Source of the DNA: Dictyostelium discoideum
Taxonomy: Eukaryota
Length of the DNA stretch: 64,000 bases
Direction: 5' to 3'
NCBI GenBank assembly: GCA_000004695.1
Contig: CM000151.3
Location: 6,336,001 to 6,400,000, forward strand
Part shown: one piece after another, positions 3,087-47,600 of the stretch
Layout of the letters: each line of letters begins with the position of its first letter
How positions within the stretch are numbered: position 1 is the stretch's first letter
The notes under the pieces: model-generated
The model's input: the letters and a program-made list of their open reading frames with translations, nothing else
Database searches by the model: none
Told to the model about the DNA's origin: nothing
Program-made: the position numbers and the translations under genes

Positions 3087-5665
<2,579 letters not shown>

Positions 5666-6029
5666 TTTTTAAAAAAAAAAAAAAAAAAAATTGCGACAAC
5701 AATGGTTGTAATAAATTTAGTAATGACATCATTTCTAAAATATTTAGAAAGGATTTCTAAGCATCTAAATTTACAATTAATATAAGTTGATTATAGAAAA
5801 ATCAATTTATATTTAAAAAAAAAAAATAATAAAAAATAAATAATAAAAAAAAAAAAAAAAAAAAAAAATTTATTTGTATGATTTATATTTGTTATAAAAT
5901 ATTATATTATTATTTTTATTATTAGATTTTTTACATTACCTGAATGAATTTTCAAACCACATGTTTGTTATTTTTTTTTTTTTAAAATATTATATGGAAT
6001 CAATTTTAGAAAAAAAAAAAACTTTTATC

Positions 6030-24341: not shown

Positions 24342-26780
<2,439 letters not shown>

Positions 26781-27099
26781 AACAAAAACAAAATAAAAAA
26801 AAAAACAAAATAAAAACAAAACAAAATAAATAAAAATAAATATATAAATTTAATTTTTGTATTTTAAAATGTAATTGTTTGTGGAAAGTGTTTTTTTTTA
26901 CTTATTATATCTCAGTTTTCAAATTGTGTTTTATTCGAAATCTTTTGTATTATTTTAAGCTCCCTGTCCAAAAAAACTTTTAAAATTTTTTTTTTTTTTT
27001 ACCTGTGATCAGACCTTCAAGGAATGTCCTTGTGTCTTTTCGGCGGTGTTTGTTAAACGATTTTATTTTTATTATTCAATTGTATTAAATTTTTTAAAC

Positions 27100-27106
<7 letters not shown>

Positions 27107-27147
<41 letters not shown>

Positions 27148-28450
27148 ACTACTTAAATTGGAAGAGGGTTCGGAACTGCTGGGGTTTGCCAGGCTTTGTT
27201 GAATTTGTATTTGTGAAGATCTTGATTGGTGTTTTTTAGACATATCAAAATACAACAGAACTGAGAGAATCTTCCCCAATCTCATAGGAATAATAGCACA
27301 CCAATTATGGAAGATAATCTGTCACAAATTGTTCAACACTGATGAAAGCAAACCAGAGCCAAAATTCGAACAAAAGGTCATAGAAACAGAATTACTAAAT
27401 CTCATAAAAAAAAAATTATAAAAAAACACCAATCAAGATCTTCACAAATACAAATTCAAAGCCTGGCAAACCCCAGCAGTTCCGAACCCTTGGTATCCAT
27501 TGACCATCTGTGGATTTTGATGAATGATAATTTGTTAACTGTTGATATGATGGTTTTTTCAATATCTAGGATATCTTGGCATAGAGTGAAGAGGTGAGAA
27601 TAAGGGTCTCTGAATAGATGGCCACAGATCTTGCATCTGGTGTCTCTTTCGTGGTTGATACCTGGAAGTGATCTTGAGAAGAATCTGAAGAGGGTGTTTC
27701 TACCTTTTTGGTGAGAAATGCTGTTGATGTTTATGAATACTTTGGGTATTGCTGTGTTGTATCTCACCGCCCATAACTTCTGCCATTCTGTTCTTCTTGG
27801 TGTTGGGTGTCTGTCTTTGATCATGAGTTCGTAGATTTCTTTCAGTTTTAGTGGTTCGTCATTGTCGTTTCTTATACAGTCTGGAAGTTCATTTATCTTT
27901 GGATGGTTTTGGTAAAATTTGACTCTGAATACACCCCAGTGTCTGCACATATCGTTGAGGGTTGAAGTGTGGGCTTTTTTTCTACTTAATTGCTCCATGT
28001 ACCATTCTTGTAAAGTATTGTTGTTGTTGTTGTAGTTGTTATGGAGTAGCCTGTTCATGTACCAGATTTTGAATGCTATATGTCTTAGTTCTATATCCCA
28101 TAATTTTATGCCTCCTTCTTTCCAATCTGCATATGCTCTGTCTATTTTCATCATAGTTTTGTATTTTCTCTCTTCTGTATATGTATTCTTAACTGAGGAG
28201 AATAAGAACCATCTGGTCATGTTATTGATTTCCTCAATTTGTTCTTCATTTAGATTATCCATGTATTGATGGTATGTTAATTTGGATAGAACGTATGTTT
28301 TGAGAATTGTCATCTTTGCCTTCATCGTTATTGCTTGTGATTTCCATTTGATAAGATTGTTTTTCATTTCTTGGATTAAAGTGTTGTATTTTGAATTTAA
28401 ACCTGTTTTGGTGAAATTGAGGCCAAGATATAAAAAACTTTTAAAATAAT
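27107..28450 (-). mobile_element. TRE3-like non-LTR retrotransposon, 5'-truncated fragment with a rearranged 3' end; oligo(A) tail seen as poly(T) at 27107..27146
   Basis: A minus-strand ORF carries the ORF2 C-terminal CCHC-like motif CKICGHLFRDPYSHLFTLC. It is homologous to the plus-strand fragment at 43479..44045. The poly(T) run marks the 3' end. The fragment lies about 70 bp downstream of tRNA-Gln on the same strand. Confidence 0.6.
27456..28367 (-). pseudogene. TRE3-like ORF2 C-terminal fragment (303 aa). The reading frame runs into an inverted-repeat copy and terminates.
   Basis: ..HQKGRNTLFRFFSRSLPGINHERDTRCKICGHLFRDPYSHLFTLCQDIL..HRWSMDTKGS is followed by ELLGFARL*, which is encoded by the 77-bp inverted repeat. 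The expected continuation (LDISK..IGIIAHQLWKIICHKLF) is found on the opposite strand at 27238..27420. Confidence 0.55.
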
Positions 28451-28518
28451 ATAAAACAATTTAAAAAACTGATTCGAGTATTTCCGGAACTTCGGATTTT
28501 GATATAAATACTAAAAAG

Positions 28519-28591
28519 TGGTTCTACTGAGACTCGAACTCAGATTACAGGATTCAAAGTCCTGGGTGCTAACCAATTACACTATAAAACC
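28519..28591 (-). tRNA. tRNA-Gln (anticodon UUG)
   Basis: The reverse complement is GGTTTTATAGTGTAATTGGTtAGCACCCAGGACTTTGAATCCTGTAATCTGAGTTCGAGTCTCAGTAGAACCA. It folds into a 7-bp acceptor stem with one G-U pair. The anticodon stem is CAGGA/TCCTG with loop CTTTGAA (anticodon TTG). The T-loop is GTTCGAG. Confidence 0.75.
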
Positions 28592-28898
28592 TTATGATTT
28601 TCAATATTTTAAAAATAAGACATCGTTTAATTTTCACAAAAAAACAAACAACAACAACAATCTCTTTTTTTGATTATTTCATTTTTCATATAAAAAAGAC
28701 TTAAAAAACAAATAAATAAATAAATAAACTATTTTAAAAAGCCATCTTTTTACTTTATTGTAATTTATTATTTGTTTCGTTTTGAGAATTTTGCGTAGCA
28801 AAATTTTCAAAAAAAAAGCAAAAAATAATCAGATCGAAAAAAACAAACAACAACAACAATCTCTTTTTTTGATTATTTCATTTTTCATATAAAAAAGA

Positions 28899-28978
<80 letters not shown>

Positions 28979-29053: not shown

Positions 29054-30388
29054 ATGAAAATCACAAACAACACCACAAATATTAAGCAACACAAATGCCT
29101 ACAAAAAATAAGCGAAATTGTGGATAAAACTCAATTAAAAAAAAAACAATTCAAATACGTCATAAACATCAATCACGAACCAGACGATAAAATAAAAAAA
29201 GATTTAGAAAAAAGTTTGGACAAAAAAGATGTTTTAATCAAAAGTAATAATACATTCAAAATTCTCACAGACAGTATTAGTACAGTAATCTATTTTGTAA
29301 ATATGTTTGATGCAGAATTAAAAGGACAATTTATAACCACTATAAGACCAAAAAATATGTATACAGATTTTGATTGGTATAAATCACTCACAGAAATAGA
29401 ATGGGTAATAGAAAATGAAGGATGTAAACTAATTAAATCAGAAATTAAAGGCGAAACTCTAATTATCAAAACAGTGAAAAGAGTCGTAGAAGAATTTGAC
29501 ACTATCATTGAACTAGACAATCTAACATTAATTGGACACTCCAACAAAGGATGGAGAGATCAAACCTCATTACCAGAAAATCAAGAAGAAAACAAAAATA
29601 AAAAACAATCAGATGAACAACAACCACAATCTACATCAGAACAAATACCAAAACAAGGAAAAAGAACAATCATTATCCCACCAATCACATCCTCATCTAA
29701 TGATAAAACATTTATGGCCCTAGATGATACAGCTCAAAAGGTAATAGAAGCATCACTAGAAAACGTAGATGAACTAACAAGAATAGAGAATGAGATCAAT
29801 ACACAATCGATAAACAATCAAGAAATTAAAACAAAATCAGAAAAACCTATCGAACCACCATCTCCATACAATACACCAATAAAACAACACGGCGAAACAA
29901 AGGGACTAACAACGGAAGAAAAACTTAGAGAGGCAAATGATATCTTCGACTTCACCAGCCCAAACACTGATGCAATAAGAAAAATAGAATTCCCACTTTC
30001 AATCCCTTCAAATCAATGGTTCTTCTCCTCTCCAATAAAACATATCATGAGTTTCAGCCCAACCTATGGTACACCATCGAAAATTATCGATTCACCAAGT
30101 AAATTGTTAAACACACCAAAAAAGAAACAACAAGACAAAACAAACAAGACCAACAAAACACCAGTCAAACCAAAATTGGGTGAATATGGACAAAAAAGCA
30201 TAAAAACAAAAATGGATGAAGATATAGACAACTTCAACAAGGAAATTCTAAAACAAATCAATAAATCAAAAAACCCCACAAACACACAAGACCAACAACA
30301 CAACGAACAAAGTAAAGATCAGTTAGAAGACAAAATAAACCAGAAACTTCAAAAGGTAGATAAAAATCTACCCCAAATAAAACTATAA
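29054..30388 (+). CDS. TRE5-like retrotransposon ORF1 (444 aa)
   Basis: The domain order is shared with TRE5-A ORF1 (48158..49522). NNTFKILTDSISTVIYFVNMFDAELKG..IRPKNMYTDFDWYKS aligns with KNKFKILTDCRTQVIKYSNVFNGVLKG..IKPKKIFKTFNWEKS. A basic, Q/K-rich C-terminal half follows. Confidence 0.55.
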   Translation: MKITNNTTNIKQHKCLQKISEIVDKTQLKKKQFKYVININHEPDDKIKKDLEKSLDKKDVLIKSNNTFKILTDSISTVIYFVNMFDAELKGQFITTIRPKNMYTDFDWYKSLTEIEWVIENEGCKLIKSEIKGETLIIKTVKRVVEEFDTIIELDNLTLIGHSNKGWRDQTSLPENQEENKNKKQSDEQQPQSTSEQIPKQGKRTIIIPPITSSSNDKTFMALDDTAQKVIEASLENVDELTRIENEINTQSINNQEIKTKSEKPIEPPSPYNTPIKQHGETKGLTTEEKLREANDIFDFTSPNTDAIRKIEFPLSIPSNQWFFSSPIKHIMSFSPTYGTPSKIIDSPSKLLNTPKKKQQDKTNKTNKTPVKPKLGEYGQKSIKTKMDEDIDNFNKEILKQINKSKNPTNTQDQQHNEQSKDQLEDKINQKLQKVDKNLPQIKL

Positions 30389-31654: not shown

Positions 31655-34600
31655 ATGAAAATTCAATTAATTTTAATTCTTTGTTTATTTTATTTTATAA
31701 AATTAAATAATTCACAAGCCACTATTTTTGATACATACACATGGACAGGTGATGTTGGTAATTATTCGATTGTACTAACTGGTACGGGTTTTTCAACAGA
31801 GGATAATTTTGTGAATGTTAACGGTATAGCTTCAATTTGTTCAAGACCAACAATTGTTGGTACATATCAAAGACTTGTTTGTCCTCCATCAACAATCAAT
31901 ACAAATGTAGTAGAAGGAGGAGATTTAGTAGTTTTTATGAGAACTTATATTGGTGGTCCAAATTCGAATACTCAAAATTGGAAATTATTTAAAAAAATAA
32001 CTGTTACTTTAAATGATGTTATAACAGCAGGTGGCCCAGTAACACTTAATGGACAATTTTTAAATGTTGATACATCTCTAAGAGTTAAAATTCAAGATGT
32101 AGATTGCCAAGTTTTAAGTGTAACACCTACTCAACTCCGATTTATTAGTCCACAGAAATCTTCAAGTGGTTCAAATACGTTTAGTTTAATTGTTGGTGGT
32201 TTTGAATATACAGCAAATATTAATTATGTTTATGGCACTGCACCAATTTTTGATAACAAATATTCATGGAAAACAGTTGATGGTAAAAGTGTATTGGCTC
32301 TTAGTGGTAAATATTTTTCACAATTTTCAAACAATATTATAAATGTTAATGGTAATGAATACACCGCAAGTATTACAAATGCAGCATTTGGTACTCAAAC
32401 TTCCATTAGTCTTTTAAGTGATGTTCCAACAAATTCAATAGCTGTAGGAGCATCATTCCAGGTTTCAGTTAAAGTTGGAGGACAATCATCAGATACTAAA
32501 AGTTTTAACTTTTTTAAACCTTCGGTTACTAAAACAACTTCATTATTAGATATTGGTGGTGTTGCAGTTTTCGAAGGTACATTTGGTATGGGTGAAGTTT
32601 CTTCTATTAGGTCATTAACTATTGGTTCAATAACACCAGTTATACAAACTTTAAATACGACAGCTATTAAATTCCAATATTCCAGTCAAAATGCTGGTAC
32701 ATATAATATGATTTTAAATATGGGAGGTTGTGAATCAATTACATCTATAACATATTCAACCACACCTGCACCAATTATTAGTAAATATACATGGCAACAA
32801 TCTAGTAATATTTTAAATTTATTTGGTCAATGGTTTGGTTATTATGTTTCAAATTTGGTTTATATTAATAATGGTAATGCTAATACAATTCAAACAGCTA
32901 CTCTTTCTTCTGGATATGATGTTCTTTCTTTATCACCATCTGTTTTACCTTCAATTGGTGATTCATTTACTGTTAAAGTTACAGTTAATGGTAGATCAAC
33001 AACATCAAATTTTGTTTATATTCAATCGGTTTCAATGACAACTCAATCATTAATTAAAACGGGTGGTATTGCAACATTTACAGGTTTATACACTGTTTCA
33101 AATCCAAATGTTGTATCACTTAAAATTGATGGTACTCAATGCCAAATATCAGTAATATCACCAAATTCTATTAAATTTAAATACCCTTCAAAAGCTATTG
33201 GTCAATATTCACTTTTAATTAATATTGGTGGTTTTGAATATACTACAACAGTTCAATATATAGATCCACCAACACCAACACTTTCAAATTCTTATAGATG
33301 GTCTAATACAGGAGAATTAATTTTCACTGGTACTGGAATAAGTTATGTAAATCAAAATCAATTAATTATTAATGGCGTTCCCTATGATGCTACTCTTGCA
33401 GTTGATTCTCAAGTACCAGGTTTTGATGATATTACATTTACATCTTCATCATTACCAACAACATTATTACAAGAAGACCAATTGTTTACTGTTCAAGTTT
33501 CAACAAATGGTTTGGTTTCAAACATAGTAACTTTTAACTTTATAAAAAAGATTATAATGAATGTTACTGATATCTATAGTATTTCTGGATATAAAGGTAG
33601 TGCTTATACAAATTTCACTGGTACATTTGGTACATCAAATACATCGATCGTATCATTAACTATTGATAATGTTCCATGCACAATTTATTCAATTTCACCA
33701 ACATCAATTGTTTTTTCAAATAATTTTAATATTAATTTAGGAAATTGTATTTTATTATTAAACATTGGAGGATTAGTTTATTCAACATCAATCAATGTTG
33801 TTGTGGTACCAAATCCAAAACTTTTAACAACTTATAATTGGATTTCAAATGATAATATGGTATTTTATGGTTCAACATTTTGTCATAATGCAGAAAATAT
33901 AGCTAATATTAATGGTGTAGGGTATGGAACATCATACGCCTATTCAATCAATGGTATTGATCAAATTTATTTTGATGTTAACCTTTTAATTTCATCATTA
34001 ACCATTGGTCAACCATTCACTGTTAAAGTTCATTCTGGTGTTGGATATTCAAATTTAGTTTCGTTTTTATATATAAAATCAATTTCAATCAATACTGTTG
34101 GTATTTATAATATTGATGGACTTGGAAGTTTATCTACAATTTTTTATGGCTCATTTAGTACATCAGATAGTAATTTTGTTTCATTATATATTGGAGAAGT
34201 TGAATGCACTATTAATTCAATTAGTCCAACTTTAATAAATTTTTCACACACTTCAAATTTTAAATTAGGTTCAAATGATTTACATATAAATATTGGAGGA
34301 TTTGAATATACTACAACAGTTTATGTTATGTCTGCACCAACCCCAATACTTTTAAATAGTTATTATTGGTCAGAGGATGATAATTTAATATTAAAAGGTT
34401 CAACATTTAATTATAAATCACAAAATAAAGTTAATATTAATAGTGTTGATTTTAATTCACCACCAGCTTTTTCAAATAATAGTATTGATCAAATTAAATT
34501 TAATGATAATTCAACAACTTCATCATTAACCATCGGTCAATCATTCACAGTTTATGTTAATAATGGTTTTGAAAATTCAAATTCAATAACATTTATATAT

Positions 34601-35215
34601 TTAAAATCAATTTCAATTAATACCCAAAGTTTAAATAATACTGGTGGTGATGCTACATTCTCTGGTGATTTTTATGTTTCAGATACATCTTTGGTTTCAC
34701 TTTTAATTGATAATGTTGACGTTCAAGTTACTCATATCTCTCCAAATAATATTTCATTCCAATATCCTGCAAAATCTAATGGTGAATATAATTTGTTTAT
34801 AAATATTGGTGGATTTGAATATTTAACAACTCTACAATATGTTACAAAACCAACCCCATCTCCTTCACAAACATCAGATTCTCAAACAACCGGATCTCAA
34901 ACAGCTGGAACTCAAACAACAGGTACCCAAACAACAACCACCCAAACAACGGGTACCCAAACAACAGGTACTCAAACAACAGGTACCCAAACAACAGGTA
35001 CCCAAACAACAGGTACTCAAACCACAGGTACTCAAACCACAGGTACCCAAACCACAGGTATTCAAACAACAGGTACCCAAACAACAGGCACACAAACATC
35101 TAGCAAACCAGATGAACCATCTGATGAAGAACACTTATCAGTTTCTTTTAAATTACCAATTTCGTTTATTTTAACACAATTCTCATTGTTTTTATTATTA
35201 TTGTTATTATTATAG
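31655..35215 (+). CDS. Secreted, probably GPI-anchored cell-surface glycoprotein with about 9 IPT/TIG-like repeats of about 100 aa and a mucin-like (TTGTQ)n stalk; 1186 aa
   Basis: The N-terminal signal peptide is MKIQLILILCLFYFIKLNNSQA. A repeat unit recurs with the motifs ..SP.SI.F.YPSKA.G.Y.L.INIGGFEYTTTVQY. and ..FTVKV..NG. The C-terminal Thr/Gln-rich stalk is encoded by 18-bp repeats. A hydrophobic tail, LPISFILTQFSLFLLLLLLL, is consistent with a GPI signal. Confidence 0.6.
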   Translation: MKIQLILILCLFYFIKLNNSQATIFDTYTWTGDVGNYSIVLTGTGFSTEDNFVNVNGIASICSRPTIVGTYQRLVCPPSTINTNVVEGGDLVVFMRTYIGGPNSNTQNWKLFKKITVTLNDVITAGGPVTLNGQFLNVDTSLRVKIQDVDCQVLSVTPTQLRFISPQKSSSGSNTFSLIVGGFEYTANINYVYGTAPIFDNKYSWKTVDGKSVLALSGKYFSQFSNNIINVNGNEYTASITNAAFGTQTSISLLSDVPTNSIAVGASFQVSVKVGGQSSDTKSFNFFKPSVTKTTSLLDIGGVAVFEGTFGMGEVSSIRSLTIGSITPVIQTLNTTAIKFQYSSQNAGTYNMILNMGGCESITSITYSTTPAPIISKYTWQQSSNILNLFGQWFGYYVSNLVYINNGNANTIQTATLSSGYDVLSLSPSVLPSIGDSFTVKVTVNGRSTTSNFVYIQSVSMTTQSLIKTGGIATFTGLYTVSNPNVVSLKIDGTQCQISVISPNSIKFKYPSKAIGQYSLLINIGGFEYTTTVQYIDPPTPTLSNSYRWSNTGELIFTGTGISYVNQNQLIINGVPYDATLAVDSQVPGFDDITFTSSSLPTTLLQEDQLFTVQVSTNGLVSNIVTFNFIKKIIMNVTDIYSISGYKGSAYTNFTGTFGTSNTSIVSLTIDNVPCTIYSISPTSIVFSNNFNINLGNCILLLNIGGLVYSTSINVVVVPNPKLLTTYNWISNDNMVFYGSTFCHNAENIANINGVGYGTSYAYSINGIDQIYFDVNLLISSLTIGQPFTVKVHSGVGYSNLVSFLYIKSISINTVGIYNIDGLGSLSTIFYGSFSTSDSNFVSLYIGEVECTINSISPTLINFSHTSNFKLGSNDLHINIGGFEYTTTVYVMSAPTPILLNSYYWSEDDNLILKGSTFNYKSQNKVNINSVDFNSPPAFSNNSIDQIKFNDNSTTSSLTIGQSFTVYVNNGFENSNSITFIYLKSISINTQSLNNTGGDATFSGDFYVSDTSLVSLLIDNVDVQVTHISPNNISFQYPAKSNGEYNLFINIGGFEYLTTLQYVTKPTPSPSQTSDSQTTGSQTAGTQTTGTQTTTTQTTGTQTTGTQTTGTQTTGTQTTGTQTTGTQTTGTQTTGIQTTGTQTTGTQTSSKPDEPSDEEHLSVSFKLPISFILTQFSLFLLLLLLL
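34858..35100 (+). repeat. 18-bp tandem coding repeat (acaggtacccaaacaaca, about 13 units) encoding (TTGTQT)n
   Basis: Direct reading of the sequence. Both alternative frames are also open, producing the spurious track ORFs 34839..35174 (+), 34842..35099 (-) and 34874..35134 (-). Confidence 0.8.
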
Positions 35216-35486: not shown

Positions 35487-35492
<6 letters not shown>

Positions 35493-36986
35493 AAAGAAAA
35501 TAAAATTTATAAATATAATCAAAATTATTAAATTGAAACCAAAATTAATAATTGGAGAATTACTTGGGTTTTCACCAGAATCAGGACCTTGATAATCCAA
35601 GTAAACGAATTGTGGAGTTGAATCAATAGTGAGTTTAACTTTATTATTACTTGATGAGATGGTTTGTTTTATATTTTGATAGTTGTAAACAGAAGCGAAA
35701 TCTGCATCCAATTCGATTTCAATCGGGGTTGTATCTTCATCAGTTTTAAAGTTTGTAGAGTTTACCCAAATTAAATAACATGTTGAGCTTGGATTGCTAT
35801 ATGCATAAACAATGACACCACTTGGTAAACCTTTAAGAGATTTTGAAGAATCTAATGTTTTATCAAACAAATGGTGATCCCAAGTAACTAAAGATTTAGA
35901 GGAATCTTTAAGAACTGCTTTATCCTTTGCAAGTGTTTGATAGTCATAGAATAAACCCATATTTGAAAAAGCATCGGTACCAGAATTTGTATCACCCAAT
36001 ATAAAGATATGATTTTGACATACTCCTACCAATGTTGAAATAGTTGGTAATTTTAAGAAATAATTACGAGCCAAAGCAGAACTACCATAATAACCAGTAC
36101 CAGATTTAGTTGCAACACCAGTTTCAGTTACTATCCAAACTGATGGATTGAAGTTATATTTATTTGTTACTTTTCTGAAACTATTTTGTAAATCGGTATA
36201 TGCCAATAAGTATGCATCGGAATTTGTTTTTGAAGTACCATACATTGGATAGAAATGAGTTGAAATTGCATCAATATAATTCTTTCCAAATAAGGATGGA
36301 TTGGTTACAGAAGAGTTTTCACCATATCTTAATACAGCATCCAAGAATAATGGGTAACCTAAACCTCCGACAGTAATGAAACAAGTTGGATCAATTGATT
36401 TTGCAACTTCCCATGATATTCTTAATAAACGAACATATGTAAAAATATCACCTTGGAATCTTGCCAATTGGGCATTACTTGGTGGATTAGTTGCCCATGT
36501 TGAAACTACATTCCAATCGGAAACCCAATCTGGTTCATTATAGATTTCATAGATTTTAATATCACTCTTGTAAGTTGATACAATTTGTGATACACAATAT
36601 GCAAATTCATTAGCTTGATTGACTTTACCATTATCTAGCCAAATTGGTTGATAAATACTTGAAGGTACTGCTGAATCATCATTTTGATCAAAAGTTATAA
36701 ATGCTGTGAAATTACTTTGACCTGCTCTTTTTGAACTACCAAAACTATCATTATCATAAAGAATTTTATATCCCCATTGTTTGAAAAATGTGCATGGGAA
36801 TTTCATTCTTTGAGAACGAATTGATGCTTCCCCCATCAATGGTCCTAAATCTGAATTTGACCATCCACTTTTATATCCTGCATTTATACCATTTAAATAT
36901 TGTGGCCCATTATATGTACCACTTTCTGATAATACTATATTTATAAATAATATTGATAATAATAATAATATTTTTAAATTTTTCAT
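35487..36986 (-). CDS. Secreted/GPI-anchored glycoside hydrolase, GH5-like (499 aa)
   Basis: The signal peptide is MKNLKILLLLSILFINIVLS. The motif IKIYEIYNEPDW has the NEP catalytic-acid signature of clan GH-A / GH5. The C-terminus has Ser-rich omega-site candidates followed by a hydrophobic tail, NFGFNLIILIIFINFIFFI. Family assignment is tentative. Confidence 0.5.
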
Positions 36987-43386: not shown

Positions 43387-43478
43387 ACTATATCTTTTAT
43401 CCTTAATCCAATTTTTTTAATCAAGATATTGTTAATACCGCTTTTAGGTAAAAAAAAAAAAAATCAAGATATTGTTAC

Positions 43479-44044
43479 ATACCATCCATCTTCCAACATA
43501 TCAACCACATATCACATCAAAAAGGTAGAAATACACTATTCAGATTTTTCTCAAGGTCACTTCCTGGAATCAACTATGAACGTAACGTACCATGCAAAAT
43601 CTGTAACAATATAATCCGTGACCCATACACTCACCTTTTTATAGACTGTATGCAAGTAAAAGAAATAGAAAACATAATAATTTCAACATTCAACAATCTC
43701 TCATTATTCAAGATCAGAAATTGGGATCTCAATTCACTAGATATTAGCAAAACAAATAAAAAAGAAAGAATCTACCCAAATTTAATCGGCATAATTATAC
43801 ATCAACTATGGAGAATAATTTGTCACAAACTATTCAATCAAGACGAATCTAAATCTCCACCCTCATTTGATCCAACATTAATTGAAAAAGAACTAACCAA
43901 CTTAATTAAAATAGAGAAATTCATTTTAATAAAGAAGATCGAAAGGAATGAAACAATATACAAATTAAATAACAGAGACCAATTAATAATCAACTTCAAC
44001 ACATCATGGCATAACCCGAACACTCCAAACCCAATTCCATTATA

Positions 44045-44080
<36 letters not shown>

Positions 44081-44186: not shown

Positions 44187-44283
44187 TACCGCTTTTAGGT
44201 AAAAAAAAAAAAAATCAAGATATTGTTACACCGCTTTTAGGTAAAAAAAAAAAATAATCAAGATATTGTTTACACCGCTTTTA

Positions 44284-44327
<44 letters not shown>

Positions 44328-44365
44328 ACCGCTTTTAGGTAAAAAAAAAAATCAAGATATTGTTC
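44187..44365 (+). repeat. Reiterated mini-insertion array: four tandem units of [..caccgcttttaggt + (A)11-45 + (a)tcaagatattgtt(t)aca]. One further unit lies at 43419..43478 immediately after the tRNA-Ser terminator.
   Basis: Direct reading. The 15-nt tag ataccgcttttaggt, followed by poly(A) and then the same 14-bp direct repeat atcaagatattgtt, occurs 5 times. The first copy of the direct repeat lies directly after the tRNA-Ser T-run (ttttttt aatcaagatattgtta). Confidence 0.6.
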
Positions 44366-44621: not shown

Positions 44622-47600
44622 AGTAGTTGGTGTTATATGAGCAGTATGGTATGAAGTGTTCCGGGATTTTTATGGTCATGAGTTTCGAGTTCCAGTTGTG
44701 GCTGAATTTTTCGAGTCTTCTTTTTATTGATGCGGTCCGATTGATTGACTCTCGGTTATCAGTGCATCTTAGTTCTTGACGTAGTTGTTTTTCTACTATC
44801 TTTCTTGTTCTATCCCATTCGGCATCTCTCGCTTTTTTTATTTTATGAATTATTTGGTTCTCTGTTATTATTGTAGTGTTATCGTTGAATTTTATTTGAT
44901 TTCTTCTGTACCATATCGATTCCATAATGGCTCCTATCAGATTTGATGAGAATGGTGTGAGTAGTTTTCCGAGAACTTTTTCGCTCCATGGACCGTGGTA
45001 AGTGTTGTTGGAGTCTTTACAGACCTTTTGATAGATTGAGTCGATATTCTGTTTTATTGATTTGCATTCGAAGAAGATGTGCATAGACGATTCTTCTTCT
45101 TTACATGAGTGGCAATTCTCCCCATGGTGTTTTGGAAGTGCCTTGAGTAGATATCTCCATGCTAAGTCTCTTCCTTTGATAGTTGTGATTGATCTGGCTT
45201 CTCTAAATGGTAGAATTGGGTGATTAATGTTCTTTTGAATCAGTTTTTGACCTGTTGTTGGCTGGTGTTTGTTCCATCCCTTGTATTTGATATCCATCAT
45301 GTTTCTATAGATTACTTTTAATTTTTGTTTGTTTTCGTATTTGGGTTTGACTTGGTTTAGTTTGAGAGTTATTCGCTCTCTTGGGTGGTGCAACAACTTC
45401 CAGGCTTTCCAGCATTTGATGTGAATCCTTGATAGTGAGTTTTCTTTTTCCGACTTCCAGACTTCCATATGTGGAGGGCAGTTCTGGTCGTCTTTTTCTC
45501 TGAGGTATTGTTCGTATATCCATGCTTTCTGGGCATTGGATCTGGTTGCCATATTCCAGAGTTCCAGGCCTCCAATTTCATAGTCTCTTCTGCTCCTTTC
45601 TTTTGAGATAGCCCACCTGTCCCCTTTGAATAACATGTTGGCATTAACGTTCTCCAGTTTCTTTATGTCATTTATTTCGTTGATGTATAGTTGGAATGTT
45701 AGTTGGGACAGCAGGTATGATTTGAGGATTGTGATTCTACCTTTTAGCGTTGATGACACGCTCGAATAGCATTTTGTGAGGTTTTCCAGTTTGTTCACCG
45801 TATCATCTACTTTGCTTATTACACCTTTGCGGTTGAAGAAAAAGCCAAGATATCTTTCTTCTTCTTTCGCCCCAATTGTCTTATATTTGGTCTTTATCTT
45901 TGGGTTTTTAGTGATGCACACACATTTATTATCGTTTATTTTTGCTGCTGTGGCTTGGCAAAATTTTATAACTTTCATATCCATTTTATCTGCGTCATCT
46001 ATGTTACTGGCTAGTGTGACTGTGTCGTCTGCATATTGTCCAATCTTCATCGAATTGTTCTGATTGAGTTTTATGCCTATTATGGTATTGTCTTTTCTTA
46101 TTGATGTTGATAAGCATTCACATACTATAGCGAAGAGAGTTGGTGAAATTGGGTCGCCCTGTTTTGTACCTCTTCCTGCTCTGAAGGATTCAGAGAGTTG
46201 TCCATTTACCATGACCCTTATGTTGGTGTTCGTTAACATGCTTAGTATTGTGTTTGTTATTTTCCGAGGGAACTTTAGATGGTTTAGAGTCCTTATTAAC
46301 GCTTTATGAGATATTGAATCGAAGGCTTTTTCGAAGTCATAAAAGGTGATTATCGTGTTTCTATCACTCTTTTCCATTGCTAAATCCAAAGCTATAATGT
46401 TGTTGTGGAGTAGCCTTCCTGGTATAAAACCGTTCTGGTACTTTGAGATTATGTTTGGCAGGATTTTTAGTATTCTATTGTTGATTATTTTTGAGTAGAT
46501 TTTGTAGTCTACGTTGAGTAACGTTATTGGTCTTCTGTTTGAGATTTCCAAGACATCCCCTTTACCTTTGTATATTGATGTAAGGATACCGTTCTTGAAT
46601 TCTGTTGGAATTTCATTGTTTAAAAAGAAGTTGAATAGTTCTGTGAGGATTGGAATTAGTTTGTGTTGGTGGATTTTATAGAATGAAGATGTTATTCCAT
46701 CTTCTCCTGGTGATTTACCTTCTGCTATCTTTTCTATTGCTAGCTTAACCTCATATTCTTCGATTCTGTCTTCCATCTCTGTTAATTTTTTTTTATCTAT
46801 TGGTGGGTTCCAGGTGCTTAGAAGTTCTGTATGTGTTTCTTGGTCGCATTCTTTCTCTTTGAAGAGTGTCTCGTAATATTTTCTGAAGCAATCTGTTATT
46901 TCTTTTTGTTCTGTTTCGATTTCTCCATTGGATGGGTTCTTTATTCTGTGAATCTGGGAGCTCGAGTCTCTTTTTTTAAGAATAGATGTAAGGAGATTTG
47001 ATGCTATTTCTTTATTGTTGATGTAGTTGATTGAGCTTTTGATCATTCTGTCTATTCTTTCTTCTTCTTGAAGTATTGTTATTTCGTTCGATATTGTTTC
47101 TTTTTCATATTTGTTTTTTGTTTTTGTGTGTTCATTTGCTAGATTTGATAGCGTTTTTTTTCTCTCTAGTATTCTTTTCTTTTCTGTTGTAATGCATTGT
47201 TTTTTTATTTTTTTTTTGAACTTAATCCAGTATTCCGTTATGTTAAGGTTTTTTCTTTTGGTTTCCTGGTAGTGGTCGATTATTTTTTCTATCTTTTTTA
47301 TTGTTTTATCTTCTTTAATTATTATTGAGTTCATTTTCCATAGGGGTGATTTGTATATTTTTGTGAAATTTGGTATTTTGAAATCCATCACTACTATGTT
47401 ATGGTCTGATTTGTTTATTTTATCTATTATCTTGTACGAGTGATTGAGTTGGTGCATCTTTGTTGATAAGAATGTTCTATCGATTAGTTTATCTTTGAAG
47501 GTTGTTTTAGTTGTTGAATTTGGTAGTATTTCGGTGAGTCCTACTTCCATCATTAGGAATTCTATTGTTTCATTTTCTGTGAATTTTCTCTTATCGGATG

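Follow-up and report, generated by a model that had tools for sequence, protein, structure and literature searches.

The window, a stretch of 64,000 nucleotides of Dictyostelium discoideum DNA, carries on its minus strand at 26986-28431 a single 5'-truncated insertion of a TRE3-type non-LTR retrotransposon. TRE3 is known to integrate 40-150 bp downstream of tRNA genes and in the same transcriptional orientation (PMC5911963). In line with this, the 5' end of the element (28431) lies 86 nt downstream of a tRNA-Gln(UUG) gene, both being oriented on the minus strand. The element also has the oligo(A) tail, (A)14-15, and the target-site duplications (16 nt) of the family, and in two wild isolates of D. 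discoideum (L020 and L021) the target sequence occurs once and the element is absent, so that clean empty sites are available for comparison. As there is one pair of target-site duplications and the orthologous sites are empty, the locus results from one insertion. What is left of ORF2 spans only the region C-terminal to the reverse transcriptase domain. The 35-45 N-terminal residues of the fragment overlap with the C-termini of two D. citrinum proteins, P0009 and P0010, at 97-98% identity, and both of these carry the reverse transcriptase domain (PF00078 RVT_1). The APE domain is absent due to the 5' truncation. At the zinc-finger position of the fragment a Cys/His motif, CKICGHLFRDPYSHLFTLC (CX2C...H...C), is found, which was matched by no Pfam zinc-finger model.

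Several open reading frames surround the element. A 499-aa ORF (DDB_G0276205) served as the anchor for the orthologous loci, and a 444-aa ORF at 29054..30388 corresponds to ORF1 of a multi-copy retroelement. The 1186-aa ORF at 31655..35215 had been considered as ORF2 of a TRE5 element, which was rejected as it is a host gene with a TIG domain present in all isolates. The exact products of the 812-aa and 244-aa neighbouring ORFs are not on record, and a protein search with the former returned low-complexity candidates and no Dictyostelium orthologue. For the 303-aa ORF of the element itself the exact look-up was empty, and this ORF is called in L012. The window contains a second TRE3-like copy at 43479-44046, which belongs to another subfamily, since it shares only 60% protein identity with the element at 26986-28431; as had been noted earlier, it reads straight through the region with no inversion. 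When the region was searched against the window by BLAST with no filter, poly(A/T) matches dominated.

Table 1. Parts of the rearranged TRE3-type insertion and its landmarks (positions of the window).
Feature	Position	Strand	Basis
tRNA-Gln(UUG) gene, targeting landmark	28518..28591	-	ARAGORN
5' target-site duplication, ATTTTAAAAGTTTTTT in sense orientation	28432..28447	-	longest shared flank string; once at empty sites L020, L021
Segment A, 5'-truncated ORF2 in sense, consensus aa 1-292, ends ...HRWSMDT	27492..28431	-	98.9% identical to L002 4553-5491
Junction 1, one filler nucleotide (A in sense), no microhomology	27491..27491	-	alignment to L002, L001
Right arm C', inverted extra copy of ORF2 C-terminal stretch, KNTNQDLHKYKF-KAWQTPAVPNP, one CAA missing at ~27457-27459	27421..27490	+	alignments
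Segment B, inverted, sense on plus strand, LDISKYNRTERIFPNLIG...	27236..27420	+	pairwise and multiple alignment
Junction 2, 4-nt microhomology, TTAG on plus / CTAA in sense	27236..27239	.	sequence and alignments
Left arm C, native sense copy, continuous with ORF2 stop codon and 3' UTR	27165..27237	-	alignments
Segment D, last ORF2 codons (LPI), stop codon 27153-27155, GTAGTAGT motif	27145..27164	-	ORF and alignment
Internal A-run, 36 nt, native to family, not tail	27109..27144	-	alignment to other copies
Distal 3' UTR, ends ...GGTCTGATCACAGGT	27001..27108	-	97% identical to L002; conserved in L001, L019
Terminal oligo(A) tail, 14-15 nt, first base ambiguous with target-site duplication	26986..27000	-	sequence and alignment
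3' target-site duplication, ATTTTAAAAGTTTTTT	26971..26986	-	shared flank string; empty-site comparison

An earlier note, made from the letters of this stretch, had described a TRE3-type fragment in which the 3' segment of ORF2 is inverted between repeats, and both points stand. Its outline of the element has to be redrawn, as the 5' end lies at 28431 and not at 28450, and the 3' end at 26986, beyond the T-run. This run had been taken as the poly(A) tail, a role which falls to the terminal stretch listed in Table 1; the A-run is internal in all family copies, and its length is about 30 nt in a second assembly (GCA_054883475.1) and 36 nt here. Within these limits the sense strand of the element reads A + 1 nt + rc(C') + rc(B) + C-D-UTR-(A)n, while the co-linear order of the family is A-B-C-D-UTR-(A)n. 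When the family consensus was placed on the locus with tblastn, residues 1-292 fell on the minus strand (28367 to 27492), residues 293-391 on the plus strand and residues 367-394 on the minus strand again, and the DNA alignments are concordant with this placement. The reading frames tell the same as the earlier note had described: the minus-strand ORF at 27456..28367 stops inside the right arm, ending in ...HRWSMDTKGSELLGFARL*, and the expected continuation of ORF2, LDISKYNRTERIFPNLIGIIAHQLWKIICHKLFNTDESK..., is encoded by the plus strand at 27236-27418.

The inverted repeat, too, is real. The arms (73 nt on the left and 70 nt on the right) consist of 100% complementary blocks of 39 and 34 nt and differ by a single 3-nt indel; the outer limits given before, 27161 and 27496, exceed the true complementarity by 4-6 nt. 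Between the arms lie 183 nt, close to the 180 bp first estimated. The pair of arms is found by BLAST with an E value of 7e-28, and folding of the single strand yields -92.3 kcal/mol with a z-score of -17.4 as compared to shuffled sequences. The two junctions differ in their anatomy. At the first one, the end of A corresponds to consensus position 5491 and the start of B to position 5492, with no base lost or gained between them. At the second one, where rc(B) joins C, the breakpoints overlap by 70-73 nt, and the microhomology is common to the start of B and to the consensus sequence immediately upstream of C. The strings spanning junctions 1 and 2 are GGATACCAAGGGTTCGGAACTG and TTTTGATATGTCTAAAAAACACCAATC, respectively; the junction strings of the element have also been written GGATACCAAGGGTTCGG and GATATGTCTAAAAAACACC.

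About five family copies were inspected for the presence of the repeat. In L002 and L019 from D. discoideum and in L001 from D. citrinum the parts follow each other co-linearly as A-B-C-D with a single C each, and the proteins P0001, P0005, P0008, P0013, and P0014 run continuously through the region with no inversion. The co-linear proteins include ones from D. dimigraforme and D. firmibasis. The family consensus thus contains no inverted repeat, which disposes of the possibility, named earlier as a refuting condition, that the repeat is native to the 3' region of TRE3. Apart from one private variant the left arm equals the consensus: CAGTTCC is found in place of the CAGCTCC of L002, L019, and L001, and since it is common to both arms, the second arm has an intramolecular origin. 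The first 176 nt or so of segment B are 100% identical to L002 in pairwise alignment. The inverted copy alone contains, 33-85 nt from junction 1, a cluster of changes of the slippage type, namely a missing CAA in the arm and, at 27406-27420 in segment B, a change of CG to AA together with losses of CTG, 34 nt, and CT. As this cluster is confined to the inverted copy, it argues for fresh synthesis of the latter. Judged from these alignments, the inverted repeat is foreign to the family and was created together with the inversion, by a single event which duplicated 70-73 nt in inverted orientation. The rearrangement is most likely a one-off copying accident and neither a feature of the family nor a functional device.

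At the same locus of GCA_054883475.1 the sequence is identical over 27146-27560, and elsewhere homopolymer lengths differ and a few scattered mismatches occur. With L020, L021, and a third wild isolate, three out of three wild isolates are free of the insertion, which is specific to the laboratory (AX) lineage of D. discoideum. The two assemblies which carry it are probably one from AX2 and the other from AX4, strains which both descend from the NC4 lineage. These carriers are near-identical and have the rearranged form in common, so that the rearrangement could have arisen at integration or after it. The copy is young and dead, having lost about 100 residues at the end of ORF2, and has no evident function.

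The reading towards which we lean, with modest confidence, is a single mis-copying of the 3' part of the element by a two-step copy-back template switch, likely by reverse transcriptase during insertion. The earlier note had offered a template switch or hairpin in reverse transcription as one of its two explanations; this is compatible with the anatomy of the junctions, while we infer which enzyme acted and in what order the steps took place. The setting would be reverse transcription at insertion from an element RNA broken at the boundary between A and B. The growing strand would halt at the last base of A and be primed again, with one filler nucleotide and no homology, on a strand of equal polarity and at a site which lies about 256 nt further downstream. 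Backward copying, with slippage errors early on, would then continue until the template ends at the first base of B, whereupon the strand might re-anneal by the four nucleotides CTAA/TTAG just upstream of C and normal synthesis could proceed to the tail. In four-point notation this would be a 1-3-4-2 event in which point 3 equals point 1 + 1, and such an event would by itself generate an inverted duplication of 70-73 nt on either side of a spacer of 183 nt that is inverted, too. With L002 as the ancestor-like sequence, point 1 lies at 5491, point 2 at about 5788, point 3 at 5492, and point 4 at about 5710-5714. The exact contact between switch points 1 and 3 suggests that the event was triggered by a break in the template, be it RNA or DNA.

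Some observations do not sit easily with a copy-back by reverse transcriptase. The RNA break and the RNA-primed step are fitted to the data and undocumented for the TRE3 enzyme. The stretch which holds the clustered deletions is A-rich and borders on a long hairpin stem, so that they may instead have arisen by later replication slippage. An overlap of 73 nt far exceeds the duplications of 1-10 nt which are usual at L1 inversion junctions.

The same geometry could have been produced after integration by host DNA polymerases, either in a short-range template switch during replication or in the repair of a double-strand break between A and B, the latter by fold-back or microhomology-mediated synthesis or from two breaks, one of them with a stagger of about 73 nt, the ends of which were filled in and then joined in inverted order. 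We regard this as rather unlikely but deserving serious weight. The four-point model is agnostic as to mechanism, and the structure fits it; one filler nucleotide and four nucleotides of microhomology are equally typical of end-joining; and a double-strand break accounts for the common breakpoint no worse than a break in the RNA does. Moreover, the antisense 3' end on the B side (...CTAA) can pair with a TTAG 183 nt off on the same strand, which is just what priming by fold-back requires. Simple fold-back priming, however, would give A-rc(C)-B-C-D with B in sense, so that an additional flip between the newly made arms is needed, and as the joint of B and C' would never be resynthesised on this route, the error cluster found there is left unexplained. 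To copy the top strand at the other break end directly would run contrary to normal 5' resection, and a switch at a replication fork does not account for the contact of point 3 with point 1. In addition, internal inversions are frequent in non-LTR insertion but rare as chromosomal events of 250 bp. A rearranged master copy of TRE3 elsewhere in the genome, the transcript of which was integrated at this site by proteins that another copy provided in trans, is also conceivable, and the enclosure of the entire structure within one pair of target-site duplications is predicted by it as well. Direct support for such a master is lacking, co-linearity holds for every other subfamily copy that was inspected (L002, L019, and L001, plus the proteins P0013 and P0014), the loss of the last 100 or so ORF2 residues would make it defective in cis, and a perfect 70-bp hairpin in its RNA would impede reverse transcription; we consider it improbable.

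The remaining explanations have far less in their favour. Recombination between pre-existing internal inverted repeats, the other proposal of the earlier note, would fit a spacer inverted between near-perfect 70-nt arms, and flipping is possible once such arms exist. In all other copies inspected, however, C is single with no inverted copy between A and B, and the co-linear order is also kept by the proteins from five further copies or species. Since the repeat is absent from these copies it had to arise first, and recombination between native repeats does not suffice, which makes this explanation very unlikely. An equally low probability is assigned to an artefact of the assembly, for instance a fold-back chimera among the reads or a wrongly joined clone. 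Artefacts in the form of inverted duplications do occur, and the region is AT-rich and repetitive, but the second, independent assembly, although different elsewhere, agrees base for base over 27146-27560, so that the worry about misassembly raised earlier is unlikely to apply; the microhomology, the filler nucleotide, and the common private variant are biological signatures besides. That TRE3 coding segments of opposite strands adjoin might finally suggest two independent insertions in opposite orientation, nested or abutting. The inverted piece, however, has no 3' UTR, oligo(A), or target-site duplications of its own, it ends on one side at ...CCGAACCCT in a mid-codon region and on the other exactly at the base right after A, the private substitution occurs in both the inverted and the sense copy, and the empty sites indicate one insertion, all of which renders two events scarcely credible.

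The locus is best annotated as one rearranged TRE3 pseudo-element and not as a 303-aa gene, as which it has been called in one assembly. For biology at large it has little weight, the retrotransposon being a known one and this copy a dead, strain-specific fragment. Its modest value is that of a cleanly resolved non-LTR insertion of three segments (sense-antisense-sense) in which the ancestral sequence, the empty site, the junctions, and the copying errors can all be read. Should comparable structures turn up in further TRE copies, these would inform on template-jumping of the TRE reverse transcriptase, which to our knowledge has hardly been studied. One might also ask whether the locus is a newborn source of hairpin siRNAs silencing TRE3 in trans, an idea to which we give little credence. 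It would offer a lineage-specific, near-perfect 70-bp stem (with one 3-nt bulge) and a 183-nt loop, the stem being identical to the 3' end of ORF2 in a young TRE3 subfamily. Either strand could be transcribed, for instance when transcription of the convergent gene, which ends at 26780, runs on into the locus, and the resulting RNA would be a ready substrate for Dicer. In D. discoideum, TRE3-A is known to give rise to small RNAs (PMC6161686).

Compared with known systems, the element shares with the TRE3 family of D. discoideum (L1 clade; TRE3-A to -D) the placement at a tRNA gene, the oligo(A) tail, the target-site duplications, and the 5' truncation, and adds to these the sense-antisense-sense rearrangement with its inverted duplication, which the other copies do not have. 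A resemblance to the 5' inversions of human L1 elements, explained by the twin-priming model of Ostertag and Kazazian in the summary of it given in PMC11702581, is evident as well. As in these, the inverted segment lies directly 5' of a sense 3' segment with a tail, it represents the stretch just upstream in the RNA, microhomology occurs at the inversion junction (CTAA/TTAG), and the breakpoints are close and overlap, here by 70-73 nt, which is larger than usual. Classical twin priming had nevertheless to be rejected, as it yields two segments only with the inversion adjoining the 5' target-site duplication, whereas here 940 nt of sense ORF2 (27492-28431) lie in between; in addition, the inverted piece has its outer break precisely where A ends. 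For human L1, insertions of three segments which arise by twin priming plus a template switch of the reverse transcriptase, with microhomology at the inversion junction, have been described (PMC11702581). With fold-back products the element has in common a 3' end of which four nucleotides are complementary to a site close by on the same strand, as well as the making of an inverted duplication, but the simple product keeps the spacer in sense, and B is inverted relative to both A and D. The templated inverted insertions which have been reported mostly measure 5-34 bp. Template switches which create perfect inverted repeats have been formalised in the four-point model of Löytynoja and Goldman (Walker et al. 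2021, PMC7954356). The short-range mutations covered by it belong to chromosomal replication and usually comprise tens of nucleotides, whereas about 256 nt were copied in reverse here, in a retroelement and possibly by a reverse transcriptase, and the adjacency of point 3 to point 1 is not required by the model. Its definition nonetheless describes the element fully: the sequence runs from L to point 1, continues as the reverse complement from 2 to 3, and resumes from 4 to R, in the order 1-3-4-2 and with a perfect inverted repeat as the product.

The 5'-truncated element on the minus strand agrees with TRE3 in position, orientation, tail, target-site duplications and its link to an RT-bearing ORF. 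Its 5' end lies at 28431, 86 nt downstream of a tRNA-Gln(UUG) gene (28518-28591, minus strand) and in equal orientation, which complies with the TRE3 integration rule of insertion downstream of a tRNA gene with the same orientation (PMC5911963, PMC5006619). The element is bordered on either side, at 28432-28447 and 26971-26986, by the 16-nt target-site duplication ATTTTAAAAGTTTTTT. Subfamily DNA comparison of the window copy was made with L002 and L019 from D. discoideum and L001 from D. citrinum, and in all these aligned copies the T-run at 27109-27144 is found as an internal A-run; beyond it come about 108 nt more of the element, ending in ...GGTCTGATCACAGGT, and then (A)15 at 26986-27000. 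The 303-aa ORF has as its relatives non-LTR reverse-transcriptase proteins of D. discoideum, D. citrinum, D. firmibasis, D. dimigraforme and Tieghemostelium, and two relatives carrying RVT_1 overlap with its N-terminus at 97-98% identity. A neighbouring ORF, 35487..36986, is identical to DDB_G0276205 of D. discoideum AX4.

The inverted repeat described in the earlier note is real. Computed complementarity places its arms at 27165-27237 and 27421-27490, and BLAST gives the pair E = 7e-28; only the arm ends assigned before overshoot by 4-6 nt. The arms are fully complementary over two blocks, 39 and 34 nt long, with one 3-nt indel between these blocks, and a spacer of 183 nt separates the arms; the single strand has a calculated folding energy of -92.3 kcal/mol (z = -17.4 vs shuffles). 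The reading of ORF2 as stopping within the repeat and continuing on the opposite strand was borne out as well: the ORF 27456..28367 (minus, 303 aa) enters the right arm and terminates there with ...HRWSMDTKGSELLGFARL*, and the plus strand between the arms codes for LDISKYNRTERIFPNLIG... In agreement with this, tblastn located residues 1-292 of the 394-aa family consensus on the minus, 293-391 on the plus and 367-394 again on the minus strand, and residues 367-391 are therefore encoded twice. The TRE3-like copy at 43479-44046 is indeed uninterrupted across the corresponding stretch.

Segments of the rearranged copy in sense direction (family order A-B-C-D-UTR-(A)n; C', extra inverted copy of C; rc, reverse complement)
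Segment	Position	Strand	Remark
A	28431->27492	minus	98.9% identity to L002
Filler	27491	minus	single A in sense
rc(C')	27490->27421		extra copy of C, inverted
rc(B)	27420->27236		inverted
C	27237->27165	minus	native, sense
D, A-run, UTR, oligo(A)	27164->26986	minus	native, sense

In L002 the last position of A is 5491 and the first of B 5492, and by this alignment the outer break points of A and B are one phosphodiester bond, with no loss. Homology is absent at junction 1, A to rc(C'), where a single filler nucleotide lies between the segments. Junction 2, rc(B) to C, shows the 4-nt microhomology CTAA: B starts with its reverse complement, TTAG, and in the consensus CTAA also stands directly upstream of C. 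Both arms contain CAGTTCC where L002, L019 and L001 have CAGCTCC, and the arms were therefore copied from one molecule. Except for this private change the sense C equals the consensus, and B agrees with L002 at 100% over its first ~176 nt. Only the inverted copy carries a cluster of slippage-type changes (one CAA lost from CAACAA, CG>AA, -CTG, -34 nt, -CT) 33-85 nt from junction 1, all in A-rich sequence.

The comparison covered some five copies of the family and five versions of this locus. L002, L019 and L001 are co-linear, with the A|B boundary reading ...ATGGATACC|TTAGACATATC... and B followed by one C only (AAAAAACACCAATCAAG...CCGAACCCT), D (CTTCCAATTTAA), A-run, UTR and tail. The proteins P0013 (AX4 DDB_G0292938), P0014, P0005, P0008 and P0001 read ...SMDT/SIET-LDISK/R...NTNQDL..KFNK.WQTP..PNPLPI uninterrupted. 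None of these three DNA copies and five proteins shows the inverted repeat as a native feature, which by the earlier note's own test would have refuted its reading. L012, the locus in GCA_054883475.1, which probably comes from the long-read genome set of bioRxiv 10.1101/2025.08.01.668227 (a set that includes AX2-214), matches the window at 99.4-99.8% over 21 kb, differing in homopolymer lengths and a few mismatches. From 27146 to 27560 the two are identical at every base, and therefore two separate assemblies share the rearranged structure, all of which is enclosed by a single pair of target-site duplications. In the wild D. discoideum isolates L020 and L021 the orthologous site consists of tRNA-Gln and then one AATTTTAAAAGTTTT(TT)GGGAC... 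with the element absent, as it also is in L022, a third and more distant isolate. From this it follows that the insertion is young and specific to its lineage.

The surroundings of the tRNA-Gln gene contain further repeats. A direct repeat of 91 nt (28638-28728 and 28837-28927, 95% identity) begins 47 nt upstream of the gene, and its second copy enters an A-run of ~70 nt (28900-28974) and then a retroelement ORF1. It looks like the scar of at least one TRE5-type insertion, with the canonical site at ~50 bp upstream, and is unusually long for a duplication. The product of the 444-aa ORF at 29054-30388 (+) occurs identically at no fewer than nine places in GCA_054883475.1, often adjoining a 1047-1059-aa RVT_1 ORF, which identifies it as a retroelement ORF1, probably of TRE5 type. 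It lies upstream of tRNA-Gln in opposite orientation and is missing at the locus in L020 and L021; thus only in the lab lineage do retroelements lie on either side of the gene. The copy at 43479-44046 belongs to another subfamily (60% protein identity to the consensus), with tRNA-Ser 93 nt upstream of it. Before it (43440-43478) stands the motif ACCGCTTTTAGGT(A)nTCAAGATATTGTTACA, which recurs in 3-4 tandem copies after it (44189-44360); a target duplication of unusual length or a tandem repeat of local origin could account for this. Just past this copy, 44911-45783 (-), like L012 1275-2147, is reverse-transcriptase-like with ~26% identity to the C-terminal region of the TRE3 consensus, and probably belongs to another TRE family. 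Automated annotation calls TRE3 fragments genes: L012 18553-19464, the rearranged copy in the second D. discoideum assembly, is a 303-aa hypothetical protein, and the D. citrinum model P0002 (L001 4001-4955) removes segment B by splicing (...IKIHR/CNFKIKNTNQDL...) from co-linear DNA. Sub-threshold Pfam Forkhead (PF00250) matches in the ORF 27456..28367 (aa 164-228, E = 1e-3, 19.7 bits) and P0001 (aa 198-265, E = 6e-5, 23.5 bits; cut-off 27) may reflect chance or a winged-helix-like fold between RT domain and zinc finger.

Very probably the structure is a one-off template-switch inverted duplication within a single TRE3 insertion. Read from the arrangement of segments, it is formally an event of type 1-3-4-2 in four-point notation (PMC7954356), with point 3 directly after point 1. 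To be explained are why a strand, having stopped at the final base of A, resumed ~256 nt downstream on a template of the same polarity, why the reverse copy ended at the first base of B, why it re-joined at C via CTAA, and why it has many errors close to its start. A template break at A|B would offer a 3'-OH primer on one side and a run-off end on the other, so that restart point and end of the reverse copy would be explained together. The break may have been in the RNA of the element, with the copying done by the TRE3 reverse transcriptase in the course of target-primed reverse transcription. This version is favoured because the reverse copy was made from a template of sense polarity, like the RNA, and because of the behaviour of related enzymes: as known from R2 and L1, non-LTR reverse transcriptases can switch from one template to another, insert additional nucleotides and prime from RNA 3' ends, and L1 twin priming is resolved by microhomology pairing of two cDNA 3' ends. 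L1 three-segment insertions, ascribed to twin priming plus template switch (PMC11702581), point in the same direction. The assignment to an RNA break and the TRE3 reverse transcriptase is inferred, and the combined statement has an even chance or slightly better.

A DNA-level event after integration would produce the same geometry and is rather unlikely. Simple fold-back priming leads to A-rc(C)-B-C-D and needs a further flip, and since the B-C' joint would never be resynthesised on this route, it does not account for the error cluster; it would be unorthodox for the 5'-ending strand at the other break end to be copied, and abutting switch points are not expected from a fork-based switch. A master TRE3 copy that was already rearranged would have lacked the ORF2 C-terminus, and the other inspected copies are all co-linear, which makes such a source improbable. 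Recombination between the element's own repeats, one of two options in the earlier note, fails because the inspected family members are without the repeat, and it is as highly improbable as a misassembly; two independent insertions are hardly conceivable. Each of these three is contradicted by the evidence.

The element shows no sign of function: ORF2 has lost both its ends, and the wild isolates do not have the locus. It is conceivable, with a low probability, that the new 70-bp hairpin could supply the RNAi machinery against TRE3; TRE3-A small RNAs, from whatever source, exist (PMC6161686). The rearrangement is the work of known processes in a known element, and acts like twin priming or template switching of non-LTR elements. 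It does not, however, count as a classical product of twin priming, since the inverted segment is preceded by 940 nt in sense orientation.
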